From Candidatus Woesearchaeota archaeon (lineage in GTDB: Archaea > Nanobdellota > Nanobdellia > Woesearchaeales > JAGLGH01): a stretch of 64,000 nt of DNA. How positions within the stretch are numbered: position 1 is the first letter of the stretch; the number at the start of each line of letters is the position of its first letter. The notes under the pieces are model-generated. The model worked only from the letters and a program-made list of their open reading frames with translations. It had not been told where the DNA came from and made no database searches. Positions 15,050-61,228 of the stretch are shown here, in pieces. The stretch lies in the NCBI GenBank assembly GCA_030670545.1, contig DAOVBM010000003.1, positions 1,765-65,764 on the forward strand, read 5' to 3'. The translations under genes and the position numbers were made by a program.

Positions 15050-15212
15050 GATAATGAGAAATACAAAATATTATTTAAATCTTTCTAAAATAAACAATGA
15101 TGAATAAAATACACAATTGTTTACCTTTGTGGTTATTACACTGGTTAGATATATCTTTTTCTGGCTCTTTTCAAGAATAAAGGCGAAGATAAGGCCTTTG
15201 GAGGGATAAAAG

Positions 15213-34271: not shown

Positions 34272-35450
34272 ATGATAACTTTTATAAATAGTTTAATATT
34301 CTTGTTACTCATGCGAAAGGTTATCAAGACACCCCATTGGTCTTATAGGGTAGGAAAACTTCCAAAGGGATGCGAATATTGCGTCAAAGGAAGGAAGATG
34401 GTGCTTTTCATAACAGGCGTGTGCTCACATAACTGCTTCTATTGCCCTCTTTCAGATACAAGAAAAGGCAAGGATTTTGTATGGGCCAATGAATGGAAAG
34501 TAGGCAAAAAGAAAGATGTTGTTGATGAGGCGCAGATATCAAGCAGCAATGGCGCAGGAATAACTGGTGGAGACCCTCTTATGAAGCTTGACAGGACAAT
34601 CAGCCATGTAAGGATGTTGAAGAGCAGTATGGGAAAAGATTACCATATACACCTTTATGCTCCGCTTAATTTTGTTACAAAGAAAAGGATAGAGAACCTT
34701 CATAATGCAGGGCTTGATGAGATAAGGCTGCATCCAGATCTTGATAATCCTGAAGAGTGGAAAAGGATAGAGGTTGCTTTGAAATATGACTGGGACATTG
34801 GCATAGAAATTCCTTCCCTACCTGATAAGATAGAACAGACAAAGCAGCTCATTGACTATGTCAAAGACAAGGTGCAGTTCATAAATATTAATGAGCTAGA
34901 GATTTCTGACAACAATGCATGTAAGCTGGTTGATGCGAATTATCACAGCAAAAAAGGGATTTCTTATGTTGTTGAAGGAAGTGATAAAGCTGCTATGCAG
35001 CTTCTTAAGTATATAGCAAAACAAAAAAAGCTGAATGCGCATTACTGCAGTGCAAGGCTTAAAGATGGAATCCAACTCAGGAACAGAATAAAGCTCAGGG
35101 CTAAGAATGTTGCAAAGCCTTATGACAAGATAACAAAAGACGGCACACTGCTGAGAGGCGCAATATATCTGAAAGAGCTTATACCTGATGCTGATTATAG
35201 GATCAAGTTGCAGATGATAGATCATAAAGTGATTATCAAGAAACTGTTCAAGGTCAAGAGAGAGCTGCAGTCAAAGTGGAACATCAACATAAATGATGCA
35301 GATATTGATACAGATAAGCTGAGAATCATTCTTAATAAGAATTTTGTAAAGAAAATAAGGGGAGACCTAAAGAGAAACAAGCTAGTTCCTGCAATAGTTG
35401 AAGAGTACCCTACGCATGATGCTTTGGAAGTTGAGATTGAGTTCTTGTAA
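34272..35450 (+). CDS. radical SAM domain protein (COG2108-like, pyruvate formate-lyase activase-related)
   Basis: CSHNCFYCP (CxxxCxxC) after an N-terminal CEYC zinc-ribbon-like element. Confidence 0.65.
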   Translation: MITFINSLIFLLLMRKVIKTPHWSYRVGKLPKGCEYCVKGRKMVLFITGVCSHNCFYCPLSDTRKGKDFVWANEWKVGKKKDVVDEAQISSSNGAGITGGDPLMKLDRTISHVRMLKSSMGKDYHIHLYAPLNFVTKKRIENLHNAGLDEIRLHPDLDNPEEWKRIEVALKYDWDIGIEIPSLPDKIEQTKQLIDYVKDKVQFININELEISDNNACKLVDANYHSKKGISYVVEGSDKAAMQLLKYIAKQKKLNAHYCSARLKDGIQLRNRIKLRAKNVAKPYDKITKDGTLLRGAIYLKELIPDADYRIKLQMIDHKVIIKKLFKVKRELQSKWNININDADIDTDKLRIILNKNFVKKIRGDLKRNKLVPAIVEEYPTHDALEVEIEFL

Positions 35451-38059: not shown

Positions 38060-40231
38060 ATGGCAGAAAAGATGGTTGACAAAGTTATGAGGCTTAATAA
38101 AGAGCCTTCACAGATAAGGAATATTGCTATTTGCGCTCATATTGATCATGGAAAGACAACATTCTCTGACAACTTGCTTGCAGGCTGTGGGATGATGAGC
38201 GAAGATCTTGCAGGAAAGGCCTGCATTCTTGATTTTCATGAGGATGAGAAAGAGAGAGGAATCACTATTGATTCAGCATCAGTATCTATGGTACACCAGG
38301 TAAAGGATAAGGAATTCCTTATCAATCTGATAGACACTCCTGGCCACGTAGATTTTGGCGGAGACGTGACAAGGGCAATGCGGGCTGTTGACGGAGCTAT
38401 TGTCCTGTGCTGCGCATCTGAGGGAATAATGCCTCAGACAGAGACTGTGCTTAGGCAGGCATTGAAGGAAAGAGTTAGGCCTGTGTTGTTCATAAACAAG
38501 GTTGACAGGCTGATAAAAGAGCTCCAGCTTAGTCCTGAACAGATGCAGGAAAGGTTCATAAATATCATCAATGAGGTGAACAAGCTCATCAAGGACATAT
38601 CTCCAGAATATGGAGAGAAGTGGCAGGTCAGTGTGCAGGATGGAAGTGTGGCATTTGGATCAGCATTCCATAACTGGGCATTGTCTTTCCCATATATGAA
38701 GGAGAATAATATCACATTTAAGGAGATAATCGAAGCATATGACGGAACAGAGAAGTACAAGGAGATTGCAAAAAAAGCACCTATTCATAAGGTTATTCTT
38801 GACATTGTTGTTGAGCATCTTCCAAACCCTATCGAAGCTCAGGGATATAGGATACCTAAGATTTGGCATGGGGATATTGAAAGCGCAGTAGGCAAAGGGC
38901 TAACCAACTGTGATCCTAACGGTCCGTTGTTCTTTGTGATAACAAAGATTGTTGTTGATCCGCAAGCAGGAGAGATATCCGCAGGAAGGCTGTTTTCAGG
39001 AACAATGAAAAGAGGCACTGAAGTCTATCTTAACAGGGCAAAACAGCATACAAGGATACAGCAAGTATATATCTATAACGGCGCAAAGAAAGAGATCCTT
39101 GACAATGTCCCTGCTGGAAACATAATAGGCATATCAGGGGTCAAGGCATTTCCAGGTGAATCCATAACAATTGAAGAGTCTGAGCCTATGGAAGCGATAA
39201 CCCATATATTTGATCCAGTCATAACAAAAGCTATAGAGGCAAAGAATCCTGCAGACCTTCCAAAGCTTATCGAAGTGCTGAGGATGGTGGCAAAAGAGGA
39301 TCCTACAGTCAAAGTAGAGATAAACGAAGAGACTGGCGAGCACCTGCTCCATGGCATGGGAGAACTTCATCTTGAGGTAATAGAGAACAGGATAAGAAGC
39401 GAGAAAGGCGTTGAAGTCAAGACCTCATCTCCTATAGTAGTATACAGGGAAACAATAACAAAGAATTCTATTGAAGTTGAAGGAAAATCTCCAAATAAGC
39501 ATAATAAGTACTATTTTATCGTAGAGCCGCTGTCTGAGGAAGTAGTAAAAGCGGTAAAAGCAGGAGACATCCCTGAGATGAGGATTAAGAAGAAGGATCT
39601 TGAGCTGAGGAATAAGTTTACTGCTTTAGGATTCCCTACAAAAGATGCTGAGGGCATAAAGGATATTTATAAGGGAAACCTATTCATGGACAAGACAAGA
39701 GGCCAGGTGCATCTTGGAGAGGTCATAGAGATGATACTTGACATGTTTGAGGATGTCATGGATAATGGTCCGCTTGCAAGAGAGCCGTGTCAGAAAGTGC
39801 TTGTAAGGCTGATGGATATGACTCTCCACGAAGACGCTATCCACAGGGGGCCTGCGCAGACATACCCTGCAGTAAGGGAAGGTATAAGAGGCGCAATGAT
39901 GCAGGCAGCTCCGATGCTTCTTGAGCCTTTGCAGATATTGCATATTGAAGCTCCTAATGAATATATGGGAGAGATATCAAAGCTTATCTCAAACAAGAGA
40001 GGCCAGCTTCTTGACATGCAGCAGGAAGGCACAATTGTTGTTGTAAAAGCAAAGATGCCTGTAGGAGAGATGTTCGGATGGAGTTCTGAGCTGAGAAGCG
40101 CTACTGGCGGAAGAGGAAACTCATCGCTTATCGACCAGGTATTTGAGAAGCTTCCTGAAGATCTGCAGCAGAAGATCAGAGGCCAGATAGTATCCAGGAA
40201 AGGGCTTAGTGAAGGCCAGCTTGGGGCATAA
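38060..40231 (+). CDS. fusA: translation elongation factor 2 (aEF-2)
   Basis: AHIDHGKTT, DTPGHVDF, NKVDR GTPase motifs. Diphthamide-loop HEDAIHRGPAQ. 723 aa. Confidence 0.9.
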   Translation: MAEKMVDKVMRLNKEPSQIRNIAICAHIDHGKTTFSDNLLAGCGMMSEDLAGKACILDFHEDEKERGITIDSASVSMVHQVKDKEFLINLIDTPGHVDFGGDVTRAMRAVDGAIVLCCASEGIMPQTETVLRQALKERVRPVLFINKVDRLIKELQLSPEQMQERFINIINEVNKLIKDISPEYGEKWQVSVQDGSVAFGSAFHNWALSFPYMKENNITFKEIIEAYDGTEKYKEIAKKAPIHKVILDIVVEHLPNPIEAQGYRIPKIWHGDIESAVGKGLTNCDPNGPLFFVITKIVVDPQAGEISAGRLFSGTMKRGTEVYLNRAKQHTRIQQVYIYNGAKKEILDNVPAGNIIGISGVKAFPGESITIEESEPMEAITHIFDPVITKAIEAKNPADLPKLIEVLRMVAKEDPTVKVEINEETGEHLLHGMGELHLEVIENRIRSEKGVEVKTSSPIVVYRETITKNSIEVEGKSPNKHNKYYFIVEPLSEEVVKAVKAGDIPEMRIKKKDLELRNKFTALGFPTKDAEGIKDIYKGNLFMDKTRGQVHLGEVIEMILDMFEDVMDNGPLAREPCQKVLVRLMDMTLHEDAIHRGPAQTYPAVREGIRGAMMQAAPMLLEPLQILHIEAPNEYMGEISKLISNKRGQLLDMQQEGTIVVVKAKMPVGEMFGWSSELRSATGGRGNSSLIDQVFEKLPEDLQQKIRGQIVSRKGLSEGQLGA

Positions 40232-40305
40232 GGTGAACTTATAATTTTTTATTTTCTTATTATAATATTATTATGATAATCTAAATTAATCTAATCTATC
40301 TTTAT

Positions 40306-41514
40306 ATGGCAAAAATAAGGCTTGAATTCAGGGACATTGGGTTTGAAGAGAGAGAGGATTCTGTAAGAGTAAAATTCCTTAAGATATTCTATTTTGACAT
40401 TCCAAAAGCTGAACTTGATAAGATATCAGAGTTTGATGTTGAAGATCATGCAATAATATTCATAGGAGCAAAGCAGAATAAAGCTGAGATTAGGTTCAAT
40501 CACCTGCTTTCTATAGGGTTCTCCCAACTGAAGAACAGGATTACTGGCAAGGATGCTGTATATGTCCACAGGAATTCTGGCATACCACTTATAGGAACAA
40601 ATTACTTTGGCCTTGTTGACAGGGATACGAACATAATTGAGCTTAAGCCTATAACAAGCTGCAACATAGAATGTATATACTGTTCTGTTGCGCAGGAAAA
40701 AAGAGCAGTTGATTTTGTTGTGGAAAAGGATTATCTTGTTGAAGAATTCAGGAAGCTTGTAAAACTTAAGAATTGTGATGAGATAGAGGCGCATATCGGC
40801 GGTCAGGGTGAGCCTTTATTGTATGGAGATATCCTTGGCTTGATTAAAGGTTTATCAAATATACCTGAAGTAAAAACAATATCAGTTGATACAAACGGAA
40901 CATTGCTGTCTGAAAAGCTTATTGATGAACTTGTCGAAGCAGGGCTTACCAGGATGAACCTTTCAATAAATGCAATGGATCCTGAGCTTGCGAAGAAGAT
41001 GTCAGGCTTTCCTTATGATATTGAAAGAATAAAAAAGATGGCAGGATACATTGCATCAAAGATAGACCTTATAATAGCTCCAGTCCTTGTGCCTGGAATA
41101 AATGAGCAGGAGATACCGAAGATAATACAGTTTGCTAAGAAGATTAAAGATAAAGATGTGTGGCTAGGCATACAGAATTATCTGGAATATCGGTTCGGAA
41201 GGAGACCTGCAAAACAGATGGATTGGGATGATTTCTTTGCTCTTCTTAAGAAGTGGGAAAAAGAATTTGATATATGCCTTACAAAAATGCCTTTTACTTT
41301 TTTAAAAACATCAAAACTTGAAAAGCCATTCAAAAGAAGAGAGATTGTAAAAGCAGATATTGTATGCAGAGGCAGATTCAGGAATGAGATGATTGCAGCT
41401 GCTCAGGACAGAGCAATTGCTGTTCCCCAATGCCATAAAAAGAAAGGTAAGGTAAATCTCAAGATAACAAGAAGCAAGGATAATATATTTAGTGGAGTGG
41501 TTGTGGGGAAGTGA
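40306..41514 (+). CDS. radical SAM protein with ~110-aa N-terminal extension
   Basis: SCNIECIYCS (CxxxCxxC); GGQGEPLL glycine-rich SAM motif. TGAATG stop/start coupling to the next gene. Confidence 0.7.
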   Translation: MAKIRLEFRDIGFEEREDSVRVKFLKIFYFDIPKAELDKISEFDVEDHAIIFIGAKQNKAEIRFNHLLSIGFSQLKNRITGKDAVYVHRNSGIPLIGTNYFGLVDRDTNIIELKPITSCNIECIYCSVAQEKRAVDFVVEKDYLVEEFRKLVKLKNCDEIEAHIGGQGEPLLYGDILGLIKGLSNIPEVKTISVDTNGTLLSEKLIDELVEAGLTRMNLSINAMDPELAKKMSGFPYDIERIKKMAGYIASKIDLIIAPVLVPGINEQEIPKIIQFAKKIKDKDVWLGIQNYLEYRFGRRPAKQMDWDDFFALLKKWEKEFDICLTKMPFTFLKTSKLEKPFKRREIVKADIVCRGRFRNEMIAAAQDRAIAVPQCHKKKGKVNLKITRSKDNIFSGVVVGK

Positions 41515-42618
41515 ATGAGAATAGAAAAAATTAAAAAGGAAAAAATAAATAATAAAAAATTAGTAAAATATTTAACAAGAGATTACAAATTAAGAGATAG
41601 GTCAATAACCATTTTTGCATTACTTCACTCAAGATTCTTAAAAGAGATTTATTATACAGAAGCCTTAGATGTAATGACTGATGGACTTATAACAGTTTAT
41701 GTATCACCAAACGACACAGAAAGAATTAATGTCGATTTAGCTAAAGCAATTAAAAAAGATCCAGATTATATCTCAATAGCATTAAAAGAAGGTATTAGAA
41801 CTTTAAATCTTGTTAAGGAAACCACAGAGAAAAAAATAAAATGGAATATTGATAAAAAGGAAGCATTGACATTGATTAATGAAGCTGAAGATAATTGGAA
41901 TCAATTTGGAAGCTTTCTTGAATTCACTCATGCTTTAGGAAGAATAAATACAAAATTATCTAGATCACAACTAAACACCTTAGGGAAGTTTCATAATGAA
42001 AGAAAAAAAGTATTTCTAAAATTCTTTGTATATTTGGAAAATATTTGCTTATCCATAACAAAAGAATATCCTGAAATCAAACAAGAAGATCTTGCTTACC
42101 TAACTGTTAATGAAATTAAAAAGTATTTTTTGGGTGAATTGGAAACTTCCAAGATAAATAATTTACAAAATATTAGAAAGAAAGGTTATCTATATTATGT
42201 TTCTTCAAAAGGCGCAGAAGAATTGATTACTGATTTTAATAGTATGCGTGCAAAAGAATTACTTTTAAGAATAGAGGATGAAAAAACCCCGGAATTAAAT
42301 GGAACAAGCGTTTCAAAGGGTGTTGTAAAAGGAGAGGTAAAACTTATTTCAATAGATACAAAATTAGGCAAGGAGAATATTTCCCAAAAAATAATTGTTA
42401 CCACAATGACTACTCCTATTATGGATACCTTTTTGAAAAAAGTTGGAGGAATAATAACAGAAGAAGGAGGTATCTTATGTCACGCTGCAATTTTTGCAAG
42501 AGAAACAAATATTCCAACAATTACTCTAATCAAAAAGGTTACCAATATTTTAAAAGACGGAGATTTAGTTGAGGTTGATGCAAATAATGGAGTTGTTAAA
42601 ATTCTTAAAAAGGGTTAA
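41515..42618 (+). CDS. PEP-utilizing-enzyme mobile (phosphohistidine swivel) domain protein lacking the ATP-grasp domain
   Basis: C-terminal GGILCHAAIFARETNIPTI...DGDLVEVDANNGVVKILKK is the PEP-utilizer swivel domain. The last ~57 nt are nearly identical to 46828-46885 inside the giant ORF. Confidence 0.65.
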   Translation: MRIEKIKKEKINNKKLVKYLTRDYKLRDRSITIFALLHSRFLKEIYYTEALDVMTDGLITVYVSPNDTERINVDLAKAIKKDPDYISIALKEGIRTLNLVKETTEKKIKWNIDKKEALTLINEAEDNWNQFGSFLEFTHALGRINTKLSRSQLNTLGKFHNERKKVFLKFFVYLENICLSITKEYPEIKQEDLAYLTVNEIKKYFLGELETSKINNLQNIRKKGYLYYVSSKGAEELITDFNSMRAKELLLRIEDEKTPELNGTSVSKGVVKGEVKLISIDTKLGKENISQKIIVTTMTTPIMDTFLKKVGGIITEEGGILCHAAIFARETNIPTITLIKKVTNILKDGDLVEVDANNGVVKILKKG

Positions 42619-42825
42619 TCTTTAATAATAAATCTCTCTAACTTATCCTAAATATTTAAGTTCTCCGAAGACCAAATGGAGGAGAGTGCAGCGTGACCAG
42701 GGGATCAACGAGAGCGAAAGAGTAAAATTTCTATCTATAATAAATTCTGCGTAGCAGGTTAGAATAGAGTTAGGGCATATCAATAGAGTGCAAAGAACAA
42801 TACAGATAAAGAAAAAAGGGCAAGT

Positions 42826-42992
42826 ATCTATTTACACGAAAAAAAGCAGAAAGCCTTGCCCTTTAGAGCGAGGATGAATGCTATTGCATTTTTGCTTGCT
42901 GCTTTTTTTGTGTCCTAGAAATCCGTCTCAAAAATCCGGAGCAAGCCCAGTCCTTTAGGGCTGGGTAAGTCGGATTTTAGGATTTCTATGAC
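42826..42992 (-). repeat. second repeat family RE-B, solo copy (inverted relative to the copy nested in RE-A copy 6)
   Basis: About 90% identical to the reverse complement of 56157-56330. Internal hairpins gccttgcccttta / agggcaagg and cccagtcctttagggctggg; internal IR tagaaatcc..ggatttcta. Confidence 0.65.
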
Positions 42993-44361
42993 TTTCAGAG
43001 ATTACTTTAATTTGAGTCAATTCACGAAAACCTACAACTCCGTGTTCTCTTCCCATTCCTGATCTCTTATACCCACCAAATGGATTGCAGGAGAGCCAGT
43101 GAGTCGCATTGTTAATTTCAACAGTTCCAGATTCTATTCGGGAAGCAACTCTTTTTGCTCTATTTTTATCTTTAGTAAAAACAATTGAACCTAAACCATA
43201 GATTGTGTCATTTGCGAGATTCACTGCTTCTTCTTCAGTTTCAAAAGAAACAACAGAAAGGACAGGTCCAAATACTTCTTCTTTCCAAACTCGCATTTTT
43301 TTATTGATGTTGGTTAATAGAGTTGGAAGATAGTAAGCACCCTGTACGTCATCTGGGGAATATCCACCAATTACAACTTTCGCACCATTGTCTACTGCAT
43401 CTTTAACTTGACTTTCTAGTAGAGTTAATTGTCTTTTTGCCACCAAACTTCCAATGTTAGTTTCTGGGTCTTCGGGGTCACCTATTTTCTTAGATTCAAT
43501 TTCTTTCTTCAATCTCTGCACAACCTCGTCAAAAATTGATTTATGGACAATTAATCGTTTAAGGGCATCACAAGTTTGTCCGCAAGTCTTGAATCGCTTT
43601 GCATATATTTTGTTTACAAATTCTTCAATCTCTGCATCTTCAAACAAAATGCCTGGATTGGATCCACCAAGTTCAAGAATTGCTTTAATGAATTTCTCCC
43701 CTGCTAATTTATACAATTTTTGACCAACTTTTGTGCTTCCTGTAAACCAAATTAGATTAATGTTATCATTAACTAATTTCCATCCAATTTCTCCATCCCC
43801 ATATACCTCAGAAAACACCCCCTCGGGAAGTTCGTGGCCTAGCATAATTTTTTCTATTAATTTTCCCATCACAGGGCATTCGTCAGATATTTTGAAAACC
43901 ACAGTGTTACCTGCAAGAAGATTTGGAATAACCCCCCAGACAAACATACCAAATGGGTGATTCCATGGTGTAATAACTGCTGCTACACCAAGTGGTTCAT
44001 ACACAATTTTGTGAATTGACTCTTTATCTTCATGGGTGATTTCGTCAGAAAGTGCAGACTCAACATTTTCTAAGAACCATTTTATTTTTTCAATGTGTCC
44101 ACTTACCACTGATTTACTTTCTGTAATCGCTCTTCCTGTTTCTTTTGTAGTTAGTAAGACCATCTCATCTTTTCTTGCTTTAAAGTCCTCATAAATTGGT
44201 CTTAAAAGTTCAACTCTTTTCTTAACACCTAATTCTTTCCAAGCGAGCTTTGCTTTGTGTGCAGCTTGTACTTTCTCTTGTAATTCTATGTCAGAAGATA
44301 CATCTAATTCTCCAATTATTTCATAGTTTTTACCGGGGTTAGTTGAGGTGATTTTCGTCAT
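42955..44361 (-). CDS. NAD(P)-dependent aldehyde dehydrogenase
   Basis: ALDH motifs (FTGSTKVG, ELGGSNP, GQTC catalytic Cys region, EEVFGPV). The last ~12 codons lie inside repeat RE-B. Confidence 0.85.
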   Translation of the reverse strand: MTKITSTNPGKNYEIIGELDVSSDIELQEKVQAAHKAKLAWKELGVKKRVELLRPIYEDFKARKDEMVLLTTKETGRAITESKSVVSGHIEKIKWFLENVESALSDEITHEDKESIHKIVYEPLGVAAVITPWNHPFGMFVWGVIPNLLAGNTVVFKISDECPVMGKLIEKIMLGHELPEGVFSEVYGDGEIGWKLVNDNINLIWFTGSTKVGQKLYKLAGEKFIKAILELGGSNPGILFEDAEIEEFVNKIYAKRFKTCGQTCDALKRLIVHKSIFDEVVQRLKKEIESKKIGDPEDPETNIGSLVAKRQLTLLESQVKDAVDNGAKVVIGGYSPDDVQGAYYLPTLLTNINKKMRVWKEEVFGPVLSVVSFETEEEAVNLANDTIYGLGSIVFTKDKNRAKRVASRIESGTVEINNATHWLSCNPFGGYKRSGMGREHGVVGFRELTQIKVISESHRNPKIRLTQP

Positions 44362-44544
44362 ATATTATTTAAATTAGGTGTACTTAATAAAGATTTCTTT
44401 TAAGACGTGTAGTTAGACAGCACTTGTCCCATTTGCCCTATTGCCCCTACCCTTTTTAACAAATAGAAATTTTATTGAACTTAACACTTATTATAGACTT
44501 AAAAAGAAAACTTTATTAAACATCAATTATTTATTCTAATTAAT

Positions 44545-47500
44545 ATGAATTTAATAAAAGATTTCAGAGAAATCTCAAAATCAGATACTATTATCGCTGG
44601 AGGAAAAGGAGCATCTCTTGGAGAGATGACACAGGCAGGAATTCCTGTTCCGCCTGGTTTTGTGGTTCTTTCTGCTGCTTTTGACAGATTCATAGAAGAA
44701 ACAGATTTGAATGTAGAGATTGATGCAGCTTTAGATGAAGTTAATATCAAAGAAGTGCATACTCTTGAAAATGCTTCTGAAAAAATTCAGGCAATGATTA
44801 TATCAAAAGAAACGCCTGATGATATTAAAGAAGACGTTTTGAAATATTTTAAAGCACTTGATTCTAAATTTGTTGCAGTTCGTTCTTCTGCAACTTCAGA
44901 GGATTCTGCTTCTGCTGCATGGGCAGGACAATTAGATAGCTTTCTTAATACAACAAAAGAAACTCTCTTAGAAAATGTTAAAAAATGCTGGGCTTCGTTA
45001 TTTACTCCACGAGCTATATTTTATAGGTTTGAAAAGAAATTAGAAAAAGACAAAATTTCTGTTGCTGTTGTTGTTCAAAAGATGATTCAAAGCGAAGAAT
45101 CAGGAATCGCTTTTTCTGTTCACCCAGTTACACAAGATGAAAACCAAATAATTATTGAAGCAGGTTTTGGTTTAGGAGAAGCTATTGTTTCAGGCTCAAT
45201 TACCCCAGACAGTTATGTTATAGATAAACAAGGATTTAATATTTTAGATATAAATGTGAATGAGCAGAGTAAAGCATTATTCAAACAAAGCAATGGTGGA
45301 AACGAGTGGAAAGAGTTAGGAGAAAAAGGAAAGAAACAGGTTTTATCTGAAAAAGAGATTACTGAATTATCTAAACTTATTGTAAAAATCGAGAATCATT
45401 ATGGCTTCCCATGCGATATAGAATGGGCAAAAGAGAAAGGTAAATTCTATATTGTACAGAGCAGGCCTATTACTACGTTAAACAAAACGAAAAAGGAATC
45501 CAATACAATTAAATTGGTTTTAGGTAATCAAGATATTGATACTTCCATGCTTACATTAGAAATGACCTGGAGAGGCATGAATGATAAAAAGATTAAGTCC
45601 CAAGTTGGATTTAAAACTCCTCTTTTTTCTTGCGAAATTATCAATGGAAGAACAATAAATGGTTATATTAATCCAAAAGAATTTAAAACATTTGTAGGAA
45701 GATGTGTAAAAAGGATATTAGTAGACAAGAACTTATTAAAACATTTGAAGCAAAAATCAGAAGAGTTTGCCTCTAAAGTACAAAATATCGCTCTTGAAAA
45801 TATAAGTAAAATAGATGAGATGAATAATGATTCTTTTGCTAATCTGTTAGAAAAAATGCAGCAATATCAAAAAGAATTATCTTCATATGGAACAGTGGTT
45901 GCTTTTGTAGATGTTTTTGGAGAATTTTCCAACAAAACATCTGAAATTATTAACTCTCGTAAAAATTTAAAATATCCATCCCACATATATACTCAAGTTT
46001 TATGTAACCCTGAAATAAGAAGCCTGACAGAGCAGGCTTATAGTGATATTAAAACATCAAAAGGATCAGAAGAAAAATTGATTGAAAAATATTTTTGGTT
46101 AGATCAAGGATATATTGGAAGAGGAATTAGTAAAAAAGAAATTAAGGATATAAAAAAATGGCAACTAAAAGAGGAAATATTGCCTAAAAAAGAAATATTG
46201 TTGAAAGAGTTATCTTTAACAGAAAAGGAAAAAGATATTTTGAATATTTCTAAACAACTAATTTACATTAAATCATTAAGAGCTGATTCAAGACAATTTA
46301 TTCATGTTGTAGTAAATAGAATAATAGATAAATTATCAAAAGAATGGAATGAACCAGTTCTAAATTTAGAGTCTCTTACAGCTGATGAAGTAATAGGAAT
46401 TCTAAAACAAAAAATGCAAATCCCATTGGAATTAAACTCCAGAGTTGAACATAGTATTTTTACAATTGAAAAAGAGGGCTATAAAATACTTAAAGGAAAA
46501 GAAGCAAATGTTTTTATTGAAGAAAATATTTTAAAAGAAGAACTAAAAGATGTTAAGGAGATCACTGGTCAAGTTGCAAATCCTGGGAAAGTAAAAGGAA
46601 AGGTGAAGTTGATTTTTGGTCCTCAACATAGTAATAAAGTGCAGGAAGGAGATATACTAGTATCAACTGTGACTAGCCCACAATTATTACCTGCGATGAA
46701 AAAATCGGCAGCCTTTGTAACTGACTTAGGCGGAATTACTTCTCATGCAGCAATAGTTTCCAGAGAATTAAATAAGCCCTGTATTGTTGGCACTGAAATA
46801 GCAACTCAAATCTTAAGCGACGGAGATTTAGTTGAGGTTGATGCAAATAACGGAGTTGTTAAAATTCTTAAAAAAGCTAATGGCTCCCCTTGTGATATAG
46901 AATTGGCAAAAGAGGAAGGTAAATCTAAAATTAGTAATCTTAAAAACAATTTTTATATACTACACACTTCTGTATCTGGATTTAGTTTGTTATTATTTGA
47001 TCTTATGCTTAATATTAAAACTTACGGTGCAGTTGATTATAGGGTTTTATGTGAAAATGATATATCTTTAATGTATTTAACAAAAAAAGGAATGAAACAA
47101 GCATACCAATTAAGTAAAAAATTACTCAATAACAATTTGTTTACAAAAATATTTAATGATTCCAAAAAACTAAATGATAATTTAAAAGCATATAAACCCT
47201 CGAATCTAAATGGGAAAAATATAATTGAGGAATGGGAAAAATATGTAAAACTAGTTAATGAATTTTGTCGATTATATAGGTTTTATGAACAACCATTTCA
47301 ACAAGCATTAGAAGAAAATGTTTTAAGCTATATTCCAGAACAGAAATTAATGGAATATCTATCTAATTCTAATAAAAAACAAACAAAAAACATTAACATC
47401 AGTAGTGAGGGAAAAGTTGCTCTTGATAGGTTAATAAAACTTGGAAATATGAAATTAGAATTACATAAAAATGCGGCGAGATTAGTCACAATAGATTTGA

Positions 47501-50500
47501 TGAAGTTTGTGAAGTTTGTCGCTCAGAAAAATAGTATTTCCATACAAGTTGCACAGTCTTTAAGAAATAACGAATTTATGGATGCAATGACTGGAAAACC
47601 TGCTAATATTAGATTAGCAAAAGAACGTTTAAATGGTTGTGCATTAGTAAAAAGAAATAATAGTTGGTATTTTGATTCAGGAGACAAATATTTATATTGG
47701 AAAAATAAGATACAGAAAACTCAAAGTAAAAAAATAATTGGCAATATTGCATTTCCTGGAAAGGTAAGAGGGAAGGTTGTACTACACCTATCATGGACAG
47801 ATACTACAAAACTTAGTAAAGGCGATATTTTAGTAACCGGGATGACAAACCCTCAAATGATTCCCTTTATTAAAAATGCAGGGGCAATAATTACTGACGA
47901 AGGAGGGATCACTTGTCATGCTGCAATAATTTCTCGTGAGATGAGAAAGCCTTGTATTACAGGAACAAAAAATGCAACGCAATTATTGAAAGATGGAGAT
48001 TTAGTTGAGGTTGATGCTAATAAGGGAACTGTTACAATTCTTAAAAAAGCTAATGGCTTCACCAGTGATATAGAATTGGCAAAAGAGAAAGGTAAATCTT
48101 CTATTGTGCAGAGCAGACCGAGAACTACCATGGATAAAATATCTAAAGACCAAAGAATCTTTAAGATAGAGAAAAACAGCAATTATTTTCCTGTAGTATC
48201 TAGAAAACTCTCTTTACTTCACAAAAGTATTGGTGTTTTAGGGATTACTGATAGCAACATATATCAAAGAATTTTTGGTTTTCCTACAAGATATAAACCA
48301 TTTTATGATAGCCAACAAGGACTTTATTTTAACCGAAAATCAGTAGAATATGAAAAAAAAGAGATTTTAAAAAAGATATCAAAAGATCCAAAATATTTAG
48401 AAAAGATTTCTAAAAAATGTGAATGTGATGGAGATAAACTTTTAGATTTTAGTAAACAAATAAAAAAAACAGATTTTTCCAAAAAAACAGATGCACAGAT
48501 AAAAAATATTACTCAAAAAATTTTCAAATCTTATATTGAGTATACAGCATATATAATGCCTATTCTTTCAGTTCAGGAATATTTGGAGAAAAACATTAGA
48601 AAAAATATTGAAAAGACCATAAAAAATAAAAAACAGATAGAGAAATATTTGCATATTTTAACTGTGCCAATTAAGAATAATTTTGGTTATTTTGAACAGA
48701 TTGAAATCTTAAAATTAGCAAATTTTTATAAAAATAATAAAAACAAGATTATTCCTGCTTTAAAAAGAAAGATTGATAGATATCTTTTTGAGTTTAGTTC
48801 TATTGGCGTGAAATATGGAATCGGGAAATTATGGACTGAAAAAAGCGTAATAGAAAGGATAATTTATTTATCCAAAAAATATCCAGATAAAAAATTAAAA
48901 CATTTGCAAGATTTTCCAAAACTCCAGCAAGAAAAAATTGATTATGTTTTAAAAGAACTAAAGGCAAACAAAAATTTTAGAAAATTTGTTAAAATAGCAA
49001 GAATTTATATTTATTTAAGAACATATAGGACTGATATTATAAGCAATGCACTTGCCAATATGTTTCCTTTATTTGGAGAGATTGCCAAGAGAAATAATGC
49101 TGAATTAGAGGATATATTAAAGTGTTTGTCTAAAGAGATTATTAGTTTTGATATCCCTGATAGAGAATTCTTAAATATGAGGAATAAAACAATTTTAATA
49201 AGGAGCATTAATGGCAGGATGTATTATATATACGGAAAGGAAGCAGAAGAATTAACTAATAATCTTAAAAAGTCTGTTGGATTATATAATGAAAAAGATC
49301 AAGTAAACAAAAAGATAAACAGTTTAATAAAAGGTAGTGCGGCTAATATAGGTAAGGTAAAGGGAGAAGTAAAAATAGTTTTAGATAATAGTCAACTGGA
49401 TAATGTTTTTGATGGTGATATCCTAGTTGCTTCAATGACTACTCCTGATTTCGTTCCTGCAATGGAAAAGGCATCAGCATTTATTACAGATGAAGGTGGG
49501 ATATTATGTCATGCAGCGATTGTATCAAGAGAAATGAATAAACCATGCATAATCGGAACCAAAGTTGCCACTAAAGTTTTAAAAGATGGAGATTTAGTAG
49601 AAGTCGATGCAGATAAAGGAACTGTTACAATTCTTAAAAAAGCTAATGGTTCCCCTTGTGATATAGAATTGGCAAAAGAGAAAGGTAAATCCTCTATTGT
49701 GCAGAGCAGGCCGAGAAGTACCTTAAAAAATAAAGATTTAAAGAATAAAGATCAGGAAATATTTCAAATAATACGTGATAGGGAAATTATGTTGGCGCCA
49801 GTATATTGGGTACCAATGTCTATTACTTCGTTAGGAGCTAAGAGAATATATGGGATTATTAATAAAAACACATATCAAATATACAAAAATGGAAGAATGA
49901 AGGCTGTTTTTATAAAAAATGAAGTTGATCAAATTAGGGAGTGCATAGTAAGCAAAATATTAGATGATAATAATTATTTTAATAGAATTAGAAAGCAAAT
50001 TGAAAATAGAGAAAATAAGCTAAATAATTATTTTAAATATTTTAAGTCTATCAATCTATCTGATTTAAGTCTCCATAAAATTATAGGCTTAATCAGAAGA
50101 ATGGAAAAAGTCTACATTGATTATGAAGATTCTAACATATCAGCATGGTTTATTGCAGCAGATAAATTCCAGGCAGAATTAGAAAAAGAATTAAATATTT
50201 CTGAGAAAGATTTTCTTTTACTTCTTACTCCTAAGACTAAAACTGCTGTAAATCAATTAGAATTTGATTTAAATAAATATTTTAAACAAATAAAAACAAA
50301 CAAATTGGAACTTAAAACTGCTGCTCGTAAATTATCAGAAGATTTTGGCTGGTTGCCTTTTGGTTTTGATGGTCCAGAATACTGGGATGCAAAGTATTTT
50401 GAGAATAAACTTGAAGCTATGTTCAGAGCTAATGAAAAAAAGATACTTTCCAAATTTAATACAATGCAAAAAGAAGAAAACGAAATAGTGATTCAGCAGA

Positions 50501-51198
50501 AAGCTCTAATAATTAAATATGGACTAAATAAAAATAAACAACACCTTATTGATATTATGAATTATATAATAGTATTAACTGATAAAAGAAAAAGGCTTGT
50601 AGTTCAAACTTACTATTATTATTCTCTTATATTGAAAGAATTAGAAAAACGATATGATGTCCCATACACAAATTTAAAATATCTGTTTGCAGATGAATTA
50701 TATTTATTAGATGAACATAAACAAAAAATTTTACAATTAAGCAATAATAGAAGAAATAATGAATTTGTTGTTTTATATCAAAAAGGGAAATACACTATTC
50801 TATCCAAAAAAGCACAAAAACAATTTTTAAAAAAATTAACAAAACAATCAACCTCTTCTGTAATAAATGGGATGGTTGCTTCACAAGGTCCTAAAAAAAA
50901 ATATAAAGGCACTGTAAAAATCTTATTATCTCCAAAAGAAGTGGGAAAAATTAAAAAAGGAGATTTTTTAGTGGCTACTATGACTACTCCTGATTATATC
51001 ACTGCAATGCATCGTGCTGGAGGGTTTATAACTGATGAAGGAGGAGTTACTTGTCATGCTGCCATCACAGCAAGAGAAATGAATAAACCATGCATAATCG
51101 GAACCAAAGTTGCCACTAAAGTTTTAAAGGATGGAGATTTAGTAGAAGTTGATGCTAATAAGGGAACTGTTAAAAAAATAAATAAAACAATGAGGTGA
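44545..51198 (+). CDS. giant multi-module PEP-synthase/rifampicin-phosphotransferase-like protein: one PPDK_N ATP-grasp domain plus four iterated middle + phosphohistidine-swivel modules
   Basis: N-terminus IIAGGKGASLGEMTQAGIPVPPGF...CDIEWAKEKGKFYIVQSRPITT is the PpsA/PPDK ATP-grasp. Swivel domains GG(I/V)T(S/C)HAAI..RE..KPCI(V/I)GT at about aa 730, 1120, 1650 and 2170. Each module junction retains ANG(S/F)(P/T)(C/S)DIELAKE(E/K)GKS(S/K)I(VQSRPR), a relic of the ATP-grasp tail. 2217 aa. Confidence 0.7.
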   Translation: MNLIKDFREISKSDTIIAGGKGASLGEMTQAGIPVPPGFVVLSAAFDRFIEETDLNVEIDAALDEVNIKEVHTLENASEKIQAMIISKETPDDIKEDVLKYFKALDSKFVAVRSSATSEDSASAAWAGQLDSFLNTTKETLLENVKKCWASLFTPRAIFYRFEKKLEKDKISVAVVVQKMIQSEESGIAFSVHPVTQDENQIIIEAGFGLGEAIVSGSITPDSYVIDKQGFNILDINVNEQSKALFKQSNGGNEWKELGEKGKKQVLSEKEITELSKLIVKIENHYGFPCDIEWAKEKGKFYIVQSRPITTLNKTKKESNTIKLVLGNQDIDTSMLTLEMTWRGMNDKKIKSQVGFKTPLFSCEIINGRTINGYINPKEFKTFVGRCVKRILVDKNLLKHLKQKSEEFASKVQNIALENISKIDEMNNDSFANLLEKMQQYQKELSSYGTVVAFVDVFGEFSNKTSEIINSRKNLKYPSHIYTQVLCNPEIRSLTEQAYSDIKTSKGSEEKLIEKYFWLDQGYIGRGISKKEIKDIKKWQLKEEILPKKEILLKELSLTEKEKDILNISKQLIYIKSLRADSRQFIHVVVNRIIDKLSKEWNEPVLNLESLTADEVIGILKQKMQIPLELNSRVEHSIFTIEKEGYKILKGKEANVFIEENILKEELKDVKEITGQVANPGKVKGKVKLIFGPQHSNKVQEGDILVSTVTSPQLLPAMKKSAAFVTDLGGITSHAAIVSRELNKPCIVGTEIATQILSDGDLVEVDANNGVVKILKKANGSPCDIELAKEEGKSKISNLKNNFYILHTSVSGFSLLLFDLMLNIKTYGAVDYRVLCENDISLMYLTKKGMKQAYQLSKKLLNNNLFTKIFNDSKKLNDNLKAYKPSNLNGKNIIEEWEKYVKLVNEFCRLYRFYEQPFQQALEENVLSYIPEQKLMEYLSNSNKKQTKNINISSEGKVALDRLIKLGNMKLELHKNAARLVTIDLMKFVKFVAQKNSISIQVAQSLRNNEFMDAMTGKPANIRLAKERLNGCALVKRNNSWYFDSGDKYLYWKNKIQKTQSKKIIGNIAFPGKVRGKVVLHLSWTDTTKLSKGDILVTGMTNPQMIPFIKNAGAIITDEGGITCHAAIISREMRKPCITGTKNATQLLKDGDLVEVDANKGTVTILKKANGFTSDIELAKEKGKSSIVQSRPRTTMDKISKDQRIFKIEKNSNYFPVVSRKLSLLHKSIGVLGITDSNIYQRIFGFPTRYKPFYDSQQGLYFNRKSVEYEKKEILKKISKDPKYLEKISKKCECDGDKLLDFSKQIKKTDFSKKTDAQIKNITQKIFKSYIEYTAYIMPILSVQEYLEKNIRKNIEKTIKNKKQIEKYLHILTVPIKNNFGYFEQIEILKLANFYKNNKNKIIPALKRKIDRYLFEFSSIGVKYGIGKLWTEKSVIERIIYLSKKYPDKKLKHLQDFPKLQQEKIDYVLKELKANKNFRKFVKIARIYIYLRTYRTDIISNALANMFPLFGEIAKRNNAELEDILKCLSKEIISFDIPDREFLNMRNKTILIRSINGRMYYIYGKEAEELTNNLKKSVGLYNEKDQVNKKINSLIKGSAANIGKVKGEVKIVLDNSQLDNVFDGDILVASMTTPDFVPAMEKASAFITDEGGILCHAAIVSREMNKPCIIGTKVATKVLKDGDLVEVDADKGTVTILKKANGSPCDIELAKEKGKSSIVQSRPRSTLKNKDLKNKDQEIFQIIRDREIMLAPVYWVPMSITSLGAKRIYGIINKNTYQIYKNGRMKAVFIKNEVDQIRECIVSKILDDNNYFNRIRKQIENRENKLNNYFKYFKSINLSDLSLHKIIGLIRRMEKVYIDYEDSNISAWFIAADKFQAELEKELNISEKDFLLLLTPKTKTAVNQLEFDLNKYFKQIKTNKLELKTAARKLSEDFGWLPFGFDGPEYWDAKYFENKLEAMFRANEKKILSKFNTMQKEENEIVIQQKALIIKYGLNKNKQHLIDIMNYIIVLTDKRKRLVVQTYYYYSLILKELEKRYDVPYTNLKYLFADELYLLDEHKQKILQLSNNRRNNEFVVLYQKGKYTILSKKAQKQFLKKLTKQSTSSVINGMVASQGPKKKYKGTVKILLSPKEVGKIKKGDFLVATMTTPDYITAMHRAGGFITDEGGVTCHAAITAREMNKPCIIGTKVATKVLKDGDLVEVDANKGTVKKINKTMR

Positions 51199-52103
51199 GA
51201 AATATGTCTTTTTTTACAAATCTTGTAAACATAGAAGAACATTTTAAGAAGATAAATGAATTCATTGGAGAAACAGAATTCCCAAAAGATAAAATGAATT
51301 CAATAAAATATGAAATAAAACTTATAAATTATTATATTAAATTTATTACAAAAAAACACGAGTCAATAAATCCTGATATAGCTGCTAAGCTAATCTCAAT
51401 AAAGGATCAACTTAATAAATCACATAGGCTTTCATTATTGGAATTTAGAAAAGAATTTCTGAATATAACAAAAGAATTTGAAGCTATTTTTGATTTAACA
51501 CCAGTTTATTTAATGCGGCATCCAGAAAAACCTAAAGAAAAAACAAGGCATCTGTCTTTTGGTGGAGTAAGGCAGGCTAAAGGAGTTGCTGAATATTTAG
51601 CTGAGGAATGTTTACTTTGTCCTAAACCAGTACATGTTTATTTATTTTGCAGCGATGAAAGGAGAACTTATTTATTCGCAAATGTGATACAAAAAAAATT
51701 AGAGCAATTGACAAAGTTTTATGATAAAAAGATTAAAATAGAAAAGATTGTGCCTGATCCTGCATTATATTTTAGATTTACTAATGAAGCTATAAATGAA
51801 ACATTGGAGGAGTATAAGCAAAGTGATTTTTTAGCCTTCACTACATGGATAAAAGGAAAATATAAACTTTGTCCAAATCCAATAAAAGTGATAAAGGAGC
51901 TTGATGCCTGGGTAAAGAACTCAAAAGCAAAGAGACATAATGGAGAATGGACGATTGTTGTTGGGATATCGCATTCATTTATCATTGATGTATTGCTATC
52001 CTCAGTTACTAAAGAACATAAAAGTATTATTCCTACAGCAGGATTTGTTAAATTTAGAGGTAATCAAATGTTTTATGATAATAAATGGTATAATTTTGGT
52101 TAA
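51195..52103 (+). CDS. hypothetical protein with histidine-phosphatase (PGAM-like) C-terminal region
   Basis: YLMRHPEK (RHG-like) and VVGISHSFII (second His) spaced as in the histidine phosphatase superfamily. 4-bp overlap with the giant ORF's stop. Weak, by eye. Confidence 0.4.
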   Translation: MRNMSFFTNLVNIEEHFKKINEFIGETEFPKDKMNSIKYEIKLINYYIKFITKKHESINPDIAAKLISIKDQLNKSHRLSLLEFRKEFLNITKEFEAIFDLTPVYLMRHPEKPKEKTRHLSFGGVRQAKGVAEYLAEECLLCPKPVHVYLFCSDERRTYLFANVIQKKLEQLTKFYDKKIKIEKIVPDPALYFRFTNEAINETLEEYKQSDFLAFTTWIKGKYKLCPNPIKVIKELDAWVKNSKAKRHNGEWTIVVGISHSFIIDVLLSSVTKEHKSIIPTAGFVKFRGNQMFYDNKWYNFG

Positions 52104-52171
52104 TATTATGATTATACTGGATAGCATAAAAACCTTATTCACCAAGAGGATCAATATCTTTTCAGGGATAG

Positions 52172-52218
52172 AAGTAGAAGTTGATGCTAATAAGGGAACT
52201 GTTACAATTCTTAAATAA
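52172..52218 (+). repeat. 47-bp relic of the swivel-module 3' end (gtagaagttgatgctaataagggaactgttacaattcttaaataa)
   Basis: Identical or near-identical to 48009-48047, 49600-49640 and 51143-51170; encodes (V)EVDANKGTVTILK*. Confidence 0.7.
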
Positions 52219-52231
52219 GTTCTGCCATTTC

Positions 52232-52963
52232 TTATATCTCACCGACAGCAAACTCAAGCACAAGTTTCCCGCTCTCAATCTTATAATCTATAAGTTCAAG
52301 TGTTACAGGCAGCAGCTTGAAATAAGCCTTGTCTTCTCCGAATGCTTTTATCTCATAAGAACTCTCTAGCTTGTTTATTCTTATATTCTTAGGATCAGTT
52401 ATGCCTGGCATATCAAACTCGTATATTATCCTGTCTTTCAGCCTTCTTATGTTTGTCCCTTTTACTTCCTCGTATTTGACAGGCTTTTCAGGCATTATCT
52501 TCTCTTTCAGCTCTTCTATCTTGGTCACATTAATTTTTTTCTCTGGCTTAGCTTCCTTCTCTTTTAGAGCTTTCGGCTTTATCCCAAGCTTTTTCCATAT
52601 CTCAGGCTCATACTTCCTGAAATCTCCAAAAGTCTTTACTTTTACATCAGGCTTTCCATTGATATTTGTTATACTTATATCAATGCCGCTGAACTTTGTC
52701 TTTGGCTCTTTTTCAATATCTTCTAAGTCTATCTCCTGACCCCCAGAGAACTCATCAAAATCCTTGAATGTATCTGATACAGAATCAAACATATCAAAGA
52801 ATGGCATATAGCTCCTGAATCCAGGGGATATCTCTCTCCTTTCTTCAGCCTCTTTTTCCTGCTCTTCGCCGCAGAATGGGCAGAAGCTCCATTCTTTATC
52901 AATATCCAATTTGCAGTTATCGCATTTTTTAATTGGCATTTTGGAGCATAAATTAACTATCAT
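52232..52963 (-). CDS. zinc-ribbon plus Hsp20/alpha-crystallin-like domain protein
   Basis: N-terminal CDNC...CPFC zinc ribbon. C-terminal ~90 aa EFDMPGITDPKNIRINKLESSYEIKA...LVLEF resemble the small HSP ACD. Confidence 0.45.
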   Translation of the reverse strand: MIVNLCSKMPIKKCDNCKLDIDKEWSFCPFCGEEQEKEAEERREISPGFRSYMPFFDMFDSVSDTFKDFDEFSGGQEIDLEDIEKEPKTKFSGIDISITNINGKPDVKVKTFGDFRKYEPEIWKKLGIKPKALKEKEAKPEKKINVTKIEELKEKIMPEKPVKYEEVKGTNIRRLKDRIIYEFDMPGITDPKNIRINKLESSYEIKAFGEDKAYFKLLPVTLELIDYKIESGKLVLEFAVGEI

Positions 52964-60004: not shown

Positions 60005-60604
60005 ATGGGAAAGCTAGCAATACCAGATTCACTATTCATTCCACTAGGAATGAAGCAGGATGTAGTGAAATTTGTTGAATCTCTTGAAGACAGGCTTAGT
60101 TCTATTAATGCTGCCAAGATTGAATCTGATAAGATTTATGTCCTTGGATACAATCTGCAGACTCATTTCTATTATGAGATTATAAAAGATGTTTTATCAG
60201 GAGAAGAAAGTGAGTTCTCTTTTAAGAATCCTGATCTTAATAGTACAATGCTTGCTAAGTTATTTACTTTAGGTCTTTACGCATTGACTAAAAGTGTGCA
60301 AAACAGAAAAATGCAAGAGACTATGTTTTACCAGAAAGTGAACCAATATCATGAAGCAAATAATAACCAGATTGAGGATATGGTCAAGCATATTAGGGTT
60401 TATCAGGGAGACATTGCAGAAGCAGAAAAAGTATTAGGTCATCTTGAAAGAGTAGACACAAGAAGCGCAGAGAGATTCTTGAAAAAGGATGGTCCTTTAA
60501 GTCTAAGAATAGAAGCATATCAATTGGGAGCAGATGCGATTGTTCATTATGGGGAAACGTCAGATTCATGCATTGGAACTCCTGTTAGAAAAAAGAAAGA
60601 TTAA
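60005..60604 (+). CDS. tandem paralog family member 2
   Basis: About 80% identical to member 3. Conserved upstream spacer taaatttccaagcaatttgtaaaaaaaatgggaaagcta. Confidence 0.6.
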   Translation: MGKLAIPDSLFIPLGMKQDVVKFVESLEDRLSSINAAKIESDKIYVLGYNLQTHFYYEIIKDVLSGEESEFSFKNPDLNSTMLAKLFTLGLYALTKSVQNRKMQETMFYQKVNQYHEANNNQIEDMVKHIRVYQGDIAEAEKVLGHLERVDTRSAERFLKKDGPLSLRIEAYQLGADAIVHYGETSDSCIGTPVRKKKD

Positions 60605-60628: not shown

Positions 60629-61228
60629 ATGGGAAAGCTAACAATACCAGATTCACAACCAATTCCACCAGGAATTAAGCAGGAGGTAGAGAAATTTGTT
60701 GAATCTCTTGAAGACAGGATTAGTTATATTAATGCTGTCAAGATTGAATCTGATCAGATTTATGTGCTCGGATACAATCTGCAGACTCATTTCTATTATG
60801 AGATTATAAAAGATGTTTTATCAGGAGAAGAAAGTGAGTTCTCTTTTAAGAATATAAATGTAGCCAGTACATCTCTTGCCAAGCTTTGCACTTTAGGTCT
60901 TTATGCATTGACTAAAGGTGTGCAAAACAGAAAGAAACAAAGAAAAATGTATTATCAGAAAGTGAAGCAATATGATGAAGCAAATAATAACCGGATTGAG
61001 AATATGGTCAAGAATATCAGGGTTTATCAGGGAGATATTGCAGAAGCAGAAAAAGAATTAGGCCCTCTTGAAAGAGCAGACACCGGAAGCGCAGAGAGAT
61101 TCTTGAAAAAGAATAATATTTTAAATCTAAGAATCAGAGCATATCAATTGGGAGCCGATGCGATTGTTCATTATGTGGAAACGTCAGGGTCGTGCATTGG
61201 AACTCCTATTAGAAAGAAGAAAGATTAA
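60629..61228 (+). CDS. tandem paralog family member 3
   Basis: Same length (199 aa) and motifs as member 2. Confidence 0.6.
   Translation: MGKLTIPDSQPIPPGIKQEVEKFVESLEDRISYINAVKIESDQIYVLGYNLQTHFYYEIIKDVLSGEESEFSFKNINVASTSLAKLCTLGLYALTKGVQNRKKQRKMYYQKVKQYDEANNNRIENMVKNIRVYQGDIAEAEKELGPLERADTGSAERFLKKNNILNLRIRAYQLGADAIVHYVETSGSCIGTPIRKKKD

Follow-up and report, generated by a model that had tools for sequence, protein, structure and literature searches.

We analyzed a stretch of 64,000 nucleotides from a Candidatus Woesearchaeota archaeon (assembly GCA_030670545.1, contig DAOVBM010000003.1, positions 1,765 to 65,764 of the forward strand), hereafter called the window, in which a gene coding for a radical SAM protein directly abuts a gene coding for a protein of 367 amino acids (aa) that consists only of a middle region and a phosphohistidine swivel domain. 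The latter, which we call the solo gene, lies upstream of a giant open reading frame (ORF) that combines one ATP-grasp domain with four modules of the same middle and swivel type. The initial annotation of this DNA had presented the radical SAM and solo genes as a coupled and unfamiliar combination. Our analysis leads us to regard the solo protein as probably a free-standing dikinase module resembling rifampin phosphotransferase (RPH), carried by a horizontally acquired array island, and its abutment on the radical SAM gene as incidental. The features at the junction are the following:

40306-41514, plus strand: radical SAM gene, 402 aa (PF04055, E=2.5e-25)
40660-40683, plus strand: CxxxCxxC cluster-binding motif C119/C123/C126 (SCNIECIYCS), alignment columns invariant
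41512-41517, plus strand: TGA/ATG junction (gTGAATGaga), also the left edge of a low-GC insertion
41515-42618, plus strand: solo module gene, 367 aa, with a helical, substrate-binding-like middle domain and a phosphohistidine swivel (assigned by PF00391 and fold)
42481-42483, plus strand: codon of His323, the predicted phospho-carrier, in motif TEEGGILCHAAIFARE, invariant in the family alignment

The stop codon of the radical SAM gene (TGA, 41512-41514) is followed by the start codon of the solo gene (ATG, 41515-41517) with a gap of zero nucleotides, and the two ORFs lie in one reading frame, parted by this single TGA. No terminator-like site was found at the junction, and the ATG at 41515 is the sole canonical start of the solo gene, none other occurring before its conserved core. 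The junction had been described correctly: a Logan contig of run SRR26080965, assembled independently, reproduces it base for base and equals window 39971-42585 with 0 mismatches. These features speak for a genuine, lineage-specific pair of a radical SAM enzyme and a swivel protein, whether co-transcribed, translationally coupled or joined by UGA read-through, in which, for example, the product of the radical SAM enzyme or the enzyme itself would be phosphorylated.

The distribution of the two genes in other genomes argues against such a pair. Among homologs of the radical SAM gene, the four closest (66-75% identity; L001, L002/L013, L004, and L012) all lack an adjacent swivel gene. We also ran two censuses by tblastn and profile hidden Markov models, one covering the radical SAM neighborhoods of 80 species-representative genomes (L012-L091) and the other covering 84 loci with swivel modules (751 kb in total), with positive controls recovered at 80/80 and 84/84 loci, respectively. 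At none of the 80 loci was a swivel or a PPDK_N domain found up to 6 kb from the radical SAM gene, and no radical SAM homolog was found at any of the 84 swivel-module loci. A fusion of the two domains was likewise absent from the top 120 matches of each protein. Swivel-only genes are instead linked to multi-module genes bearing PPDK_N, the domain being present at 32 of the 84 module loci, typically at the array head and on the same strand (these counts refer to the fetched stretch of each locus only). The arrangement is thus conserved in none of the relatives and loci compared, and the proposal that a radical SAM enzyme and a stand-alone phosphohistidine carrier form a meaningful pair did not survive the comparison.

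The two genes also differ in composition and in what surrounds them. Downstream of the junction, the window contains:

41515-52231, no strand assigned: low-GC insertion, from the radical SAM stop to the stop of a convergent Zn-ribbon gene (recognized by gap, GC, and GC at third codon positions, GC3)
42955-44361, minus strand: aldehyde dehydrogenase (Aldedh) gene, between the solo and giant genes (PF00171, E=3e-133; GC3 0.254)
44545-51198, plus strand: giant ORF, 2217 aa, one PPDK_N and four middle and swivel modules (domain search)
44545-45504, plus strand: sole ATP-grasp (PPDK_N) domain of the window (PF01326, residues 17-319, E=3.6e-107)
51204-52103, plus strand: histidine-phosphatase-like gene with RHPEK and SHS motifs (weak match to PF00300, His_Phos_1)
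52232-52963, minus strand: Zn-ribbon gene, conserved convergent neighbor and right flank (63-68% identical homologs in L001, L002, L003, and L012)

GC3 falls from 0.342 in the radical SAM gene to 0.179 in the solo gene, stays at 0.19-0.25 over the rest of the island and climbs back to 0.41 in the Zn-ribbon gene; GC and GC3 alike change abruptly at the two edges (GC3 0.18-0.25 inside, 0.34-0.44 in the flanks). The flanks themselves are conserved. EF-2 is kept upstream of the radical SAM gene in the four closest relatives and the convergent Zn-ribbon gene downstream in three of them; homologs of the Zn-ribbon gene directly follow the radical SAM gene in L001, L002, L003, and L012. The radical SAM and Zn-ribbon genes are 12 bp apart in L002 (5347-5358), 113 bp, with a hairpin, in L001 (7219-7331), 1.5 kb in L012 (1228-2696), where the gap contains an unrelated gene of 444 aa, and 10,717 bp in the window. 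The content of the window's gap is absent from L001, L002, L004, and L012, and the Aldedh of the island is only 30% identical to that of L001. By synteny and composition, the 10.7-kb segment is foreign DNA, horizontally acquired and inserted into the variable gap that two convergent genes leave; from the relatives' contents, this gap is a hot spot of insertion in the DPANN lineage concerned.

Because the arrangement lacks synteny and GC3 drops exactly at the junction, we read the junction as the left edge of the foreign insertion and not as an operon; the adjacency of the two genes looks accidental, a by-product of where the insertion starts. Other details agree with this. TGA is the stop codon of 16 of the 45 long ORFs in the window, and the C-terminus of the radical SAM protein is the usual one of its family, by which we ruled out recoding or selenocysteine insertion at the TGA. 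That the insertion had truncated the radical SAM gene was also ruled out, the gene being full length. The N-terminal extension of the solo protein, of 11 to 13 residues and encoded immediately after the junction, is unconserved and disordered. That the two genes form a genuine pair appears highly improbable to us. A partnership between a radical SAM enzyme and a phosphohistidine carrier would have implied new chemistry, and the insertion evidence closes this lead.

The solo gene itself belongs to a recognizable family. Its swivel was assigned to PF00391 (residues 291-359, E=1.4e-19), its sole Pfam domain, with no PPDK_N (PF01326) detected, confirming the description of a 367-aa protein limited to a middle region and a swivel. 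His323 lies in the motif TEEGGILCH (T/S-x-x-G-G-x-x-x-H), is invariant across the family alignment, and aligns with the catalytic histidine region of phosphoenolpyruvate (PEP) synthase and of the Listeria rifampin phosphotransferase RPH-Lm. Stand-alone homologs of ~350 aa, 64 to 33% identical over their full length, occur in candidate phyla radiation (CPR) bacteria and in DPANN archaea, and all 20 residues invariant in this family are present in the solo protein, His323 included; conserved residues of the middle domain are G57, R163, K164, E200, and R221. Judged by these full-length homologs, the solo gene is a member of a real stand-alone gene family and not a fragment.

The best solved sequence relative of the solo protein is RPH-Lm (residues 191-364 aligned to 701-866, E=1e-11), the match spanning only the last ~100 residues of its rifampin (RIF)-binding domain. 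The AlphaFold2 (AF2) model of the solo protein (predicted local distance difference test score, pLDDT, 87.7) gave RPH-Lm entries as its six top Foldseek matches (5fbs/5fbt/5hv1, E 2.8e-11 to 2e-9, 278-394 columns). PPDK, pyruvate kinase, and Enzyme I ranked below RPH and matched the swivel only. No PEP/pyruvate-binding TIM-barrel was detected in the solo protein or the giant ORF, for which the searches returned PF00391 alone and PF01326 with PF00391, respectively. Since RPH is the top match by both sequence and fold and no TIM-barrel was detected, the best reading of the solo protein is that of an RPH-like substrate-binding and swivel unit without an ATP-grasp domain of its own. The defense models of PADLOC matched neither the solo protein nor the giant ORF nor the phosphatase-like gene.

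The giant ORF carries the same kind of module four times, with swivel histidines at positions 734, 1125, 1656, and 2171, and the solo protein is related to these modules, as had been proposed. The statement that the solo gene lies upstream of the giant ORF holds for its position, but the minus-strand Aldedh gene intervenes. Among the giant's modules, the middles are 30-35% identical or unalignable and the swivels 45-59% identical, and the closest relative of its first 777 residues is a single-module protein of 782 aa (73% identity). Copies of ~85 nt of the end of the ATP-grasp domain (GFPCDIEWAKEKGK.. / GSPCDIELAKEKGKS..) are found at 45401-45485, 46880-46964, 48053-48137, and 49646-49730, and each module junction consists of a swivel-end tract followed by one of these copies (repeat families D3 and D4). 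As every junction repeats the tract and the ATP-grasp end, the giant gene looks like a fused array of formerly separate units with common breakpoints. No further full PPDK_N domain was found in the window by tblastn. The phosphatase-like gene follows closely, its GAGGTGA Shine-Dalgarno sequence overlapping the stop of the giant ORF.

The swivel-end tract links the solo gene to the giant ORF at the nucleotide level. The copies in question are:

42556-42611, plus strand: 3'-terminal tract of the solo gene, 55/56 identical to the tract of giant module 1
46819-46874, plus strand: partner tract at the end of giant module 1, 55/56 identical to the solo tract
52173-52219, plus strand: sixth, body-less copy of the swivel end (..EVEVDANKGTVTILK and stop), at the right edge of the insertion

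The near-identity that the initial annotation reported stands, but its positions (42553-42610 and 46828-46885) are out of register and match at 19/58 nucleotides. The divergence it noted outside the tract was also recovered, the 216 nt upstream being 47% identical between the solo gene and module 1. Because the peptide encoded by the tract, DGDLVEVDANNGVVKILKK, is conserved in the family, we tested synonymous positions by counting identical codons among those coding for the same amino acid in both genes. Such codons are identical at 17/19 positions in the tract and at 10/23 in the part of the swivel domain upstream of it (binomial P=4.2e-5). A weaker codon-level excess also exists between giant modules 1, 2, and 4, and a repeat search found the tract six times in the island. 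The equivalent C-terminal stretch showed little or no such excess in 19 arrays of other genomes, which indicates local homogenization and by which a family-wide nucleotide constraint was ruled out as the cause. The closest solo ortholog, P0122, has a different C-terminal end (…DADTGVVRKIKE). Given the sharp boundary of identity, the excess of synonymous identity, and the differing end of P0122, gene conversion is a sound reading, and the view that the solo gene and module 1 underwent a recent conversion of their 3' ends, partly homogenized over the six island copies, is supported by the codon counts.

The first 32 nt of the body-less copy at 52173-52219, which stands 13 nt before the stop of the Zn-ribbon gene, are an exact repeat of the end of module 4 (51141-51172). 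These two stretches flank the phosphatase-like gene, which looks as though it went into the final five codons of module 4 or took their place.

A repeat of at least 32 nt in a metagenome-assembled genome (MAG) could have produced a chimeric join, and the junction, the tract, or both could then be assembly artifacts. The Logan contig (L174) indeed ends 30 nt into the tract (42556-42585), as a k-mer assembler would at a repeat, and the composition changes abruptly at the junction. Yet the second assembly contains the junction, one base distinguishes the two tract copies, whose downstream sequences differ, the C-terminus of the solo protein is typical of its family, and both flanks continue the synteny of the relatives from the radical SAM gene to the Zn-ribbon gene, unlike what a chimera would give. 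An artifact is therefore an unlikely explanation of the tract, and we judge it extremely improbable that an artifact lies behind either feature.

The census of the 84 swivel-module loci placed the island among many comparable arrays. At least two modules lie on one strand at 59 loci and at least four at 29, and a Paceibacterota contig (L008, Ga0376277_0000148, 1128-17056) carries at least 11 tandem module genes. The contig of P0122, the 64% identical solo ortholog (L006), adds a histidine phosphatase gene (1107-1724) and two modules, and L092 has a module directly upstream of a solo relative. The only recurrent accessory genes were of histidine-phosphatase-like families (two families, at 6 loci each), a type that the phosphatase-like gene of the island (51204-52103) matches. 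Proteins combining PPDK_N with modules number in the thousands and come in forms of ~780 aa and ~1150-1350 aa. We found no description of arrays of swivel/PEP-utilizing modules in CPR or DPANN in the literature searched; a paper on the CPR resistome merely counted rph-like matches.

Several further loci resemble L008: together with it, L114, L152, L154, and L173 represent CPR genomes with 7 to at least 11 tandem middle and swivel genes on one strand, often without PPDK_N in the fetched stretch. Genes resembling His_Phos_1 (RHG..SH motifs) also occur at L111, L131, and L164. Some of the ~1150-1350-aa proteins with PPDK_N and a swivel also bear PF02350 (UDP-GlcNAc 2-epimerase) or PF01989 (aconitase-X swivel), namely P0258, P0259, P0261, P0266, P0267, P0271, P0292, P0302, P0328, and P0337; these domains give hints of sugar-nucleotide or other substrates for part of this family.

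On the island, five intact swivel modules accompany one ATP-grasp domain, and all catalytic histidines are conserved. By analogy with known dikinases, the best reading is that the solo protein acts as a subunit of an RPH-like small-molecule dikinase and is charged in trans. The giant protein's ATP-grasp domain would phosphorylate the swivel histidines, in cis for its own four modules and in trans for His323 of the solo protein; from each swivel, the phosphate would then pass to a small molecule bound in the diverged middle domain of the same module, with the phosphatase-like protein perhaps resetting phospho-intermediates or products. A more tentative proposal, possible but somewhat doubtful in our eyes, is that the solo protein and the four giant modules are interchangeable substrate arms on one ATP-grasp head, forming a combinatorial dikinase that is widespread in CPR and DPANN as tandem arrays of up to at least 11 modules, in part fused into giant proteins and in some cases joined by a histidine-phosphatase-like partner. 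Homogenized module ends would allow modules to be shuffled, duplicated, fused, and split.

The solo gene has no intergenic region upstream. A TATA-like sequence, ATAATATATTTA, lies 23-35 nt upstream of its ATG, within the radical SAM codons for the conserved residues KDNIF, at a spacing that matches that of the TATA-like boxes upstream of the giant and Aldedh genes. The solo gene might be expressed from the radical SAM promoter, through read-through and re-initiation at the UGA-AUG, or else from the TATA-like box. Physically, such a junction allows translational coupling, and a leaderless transcript starting from the box is also possible. We infer this mode of expression, as we do the trans-phosphorylation and the small-molecule substrate.

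A number of observations weigh against the reading of the solo protein as an RPH-like module charged by the giant's ATP-grasp domain after acquisition with the island. Solo residues 1-258 have no Pfam match at E<=10, the threshold used for all unassigned regions, and the middle domain, of ~250 aa, is about half the size of the RIF-binding domain. The Foldseek TM-scores against RPH are low (0.26-0.33), to which domain mobility and partial coverage contribute. The contig of the closest solo ortholog begins within the gene, hiding its upstream neighbor. The solo gene lacks a well-spaced GGTG Shine-Dalgarno sequence, unlike the other operon-internal genes here, and is parted from the ATP-grasp-bearing giant gene by 1.9 kb that include the oppositely oriented Aldedh gene. 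Lastly, three short-form relatives (L010, L095, and L096) have neither a PPDK_N domain nor another module within 8 kb; as these genes stand alone, trans-charging by a neighboring ATP-grasp domain is not a general rule.

The missing Shine-Dalgarno sequence and promoter region, the inverted gene, and the presence of other debris in the island, such as the swivel-end relic at 52173-52219, might also mean that the solo gene is a decaying, non-functional or unexpressed leftover of an array, severed from its ATP-grasp partner by rearrangement. Its ORF is intact, though, and of full length relative to the ~350-aa stand-alone family, it retains the 20 invariant residues and a confidently modeled fold, and short-form genes stand alone in many genomes; we hold this explanation to be quite improbable. 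Somewhat less improbable, but still unlikely, is that the solo protein works independently of the giant's ATP-grasp domain, either as an autonomous phosphotransferase moving phosphate among phosphorylated metabolites or charged by a PPDK_N protein encoded elsewhere. The isolated short-form relatives would fit this, as would the finding that HpeH, the swivel-bearing subunit of a two-component dikinase, alone moves phosphate between product and substrate (PMC12167813). Against it, the island itself encodes an ATP-grasp domain of the same family at a distance of 1.9 kb, arrays make up most of the module loci, PPDK_N is present in the fetched stretch of 32 of the 84, and the conversion tract points to ongoing exchange with module 1.

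The radical SAM ORF and its motif had been identified correctly: C119, C123, and C126 are invariant in an alignment of 16 homologs. Nearly all of the 1461 homologs are ~400 aa long, and they come from Woesearchaeota and Nanoarchaeota; the sources label them merely as uncharacterized, the JGI name being 'uncharacterized Fe-S cluster-containing radical SAM superfamily enzyme'. Judged from this alignment, the protein is a full-length member of a conserved, uncharacterized DPANN family. All 47 of its NCBIfam matches scored under their cut-offs, so that no named radical SAM equivalog was reached, and the profile search of the N-terminal ~110 aa that had been proposed returned zero Pfam matches at E<=10 (116 aa searched), as did that of the C-terminal 73 aa. 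Its PADLOC matches were limited to generic similarity to the viperin core, and no COG2100 radical SAM protein was found in the literature searched.

The AF2 model of the radical SAM protein (pLDDT 86) comprises a beta-rich N-terminal domain, the core, and a C-terminal five-strand barrel, with Foldseek matches to MoaA, RimO, PFL-AE, NifB, and MiaB. The alignments to RimO and MiaB extend over 347-365 columns, compared with ~260 for core-only enzymes, and these longer alignments hint at a TRAM-like C-terminal domain and a macromolecular substrate. In close relatives, the neighbors of the gene are L7Ae-S28e-L24e-NDK-EF-2. Across the wider Woesearchaeota, it is usually divergent from a 300-aa gene that we take, from reading its sequence, to be GINS-like (62/80 loci), beyond which lie what are presumably L44e and eIF2-alpha-like genes; a large protein that we likewise assume to be S-layer-like is encoded downstream. 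By their names, the gene's neighbors belong to the information-processing machinery.

Two other observations concern the window at large. A second, distant radical SAM-like stretch lies ~6 kb upstream of the radical SAM gene (34422-34904; 23% identity to residues 119-270, tblastn E=1e-5). Further downstream, two tandem 199-aa ORFs (60005-60604 and 60629-61228) with zero Pfam matches and near-identical upstream regions of 40 nt (..aaattaaatttCCAAGCAATTTGTAAAAAAA ATG) look like a recent tandem duplication.

What remains of interest at the locus is a large, fast-diversifying set of RPH-like module arrays in ultra-small symbiotic archaea and bacteria, apparently served by a single ATP-grasp domain. 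If true, a one-to-many dikinase design would extend the recently recognized two-component small-molecule dikinases and could explain how organisms of minimal metabolism phosphorylate many compounds, for scavenging, activation, or detoxification. The locus is also a clean example of gene conversion confined to module ends. Its tract repeat breaks k-mer assemblies, and short-read MAGs will often fragment such arrays.

Compared with known systems, the radical SAM-solo junction resembles translationally coupled pairs that work by termination and re-initiation, in which UGA and AUG likewise abut on one strand with no intergenic space. It differs from them in that the arrangement is unconserved and falls on an insertion edge. 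The radical SAM protein shares the CxxxCxxC motif and a MoaA-like core with MoaA and NifB (TIGR02666, E=1.2e-23; PDB 1tv7, E=6.6e-11), but its best equivalog score, that to MoaA (TIGR02666), is 83.6 bits against an NCBIfam cut-off of 284; it is also consistent with the layout of RimO and MiaB, a core followed by a C-terminal beta-barrel.

With PEP synthase and PPDK, the island proteins have in common the PPDK_N ATP-grasp domain and the PEP-utilizers swivel, which is why annotations name such proteins PEP synthase. The NCBIfam scores of the solo protein are, however, far under the cut-offs for that enzyme (e.g., 80.7 vs 883), and the TIM-barrel is missing from the domains detected. The RPH enzymes (RPH-Lm, PDB 5FBS/5FBT/5HV1; Stogios et al. 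2016, PMC4844700) are closer in design, since they have a helical substrate-binding region followed by a GGxxxH swivel, a layout that the solo protein probably shares, and also lack the TIM-barrel; the path of phosphate from ATP to histidine to a small molecule is presumably common to both. RPH is a single polypeptide with its own ATP-grasp domain, whereas the solo protein has none; the RPH middle domain measures ~430 aa, identity over the fold alignment is only 15-18%, and nothing suggests rifamycins, the substrates of RPH, for the solo protein.

The closest precedent for charging in trans is given by the two-component dikinases HpeHI, CreHI, and PpsAB (phenylphosphate synthase), in which the substrate-binding and swivel subunit is separate from the ATP-grasp subunit and the swivel histidine is essential (PMC12167813), an organization that the solo and giant proteins would share. 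In those systems, the two subunits are encoded by dedicated, adjacent genes in a 1:1 ratio and the H subunit is ~71 kDa (42 kDa for the solo protein). Here, by contrast, the ATP-grasp domain heads a four-module fusion, the fifth module is separate, 1.9 kb upstream across an inverted gene, and loci related to that of the solo gene carry up to at least 11 tandem modules. By these comparisons, the solo protein is best placed within the known kind of RPH and two-component dikinases, and the multi-module organization of the CPR and DPANN arrays is the part worth pursuing.

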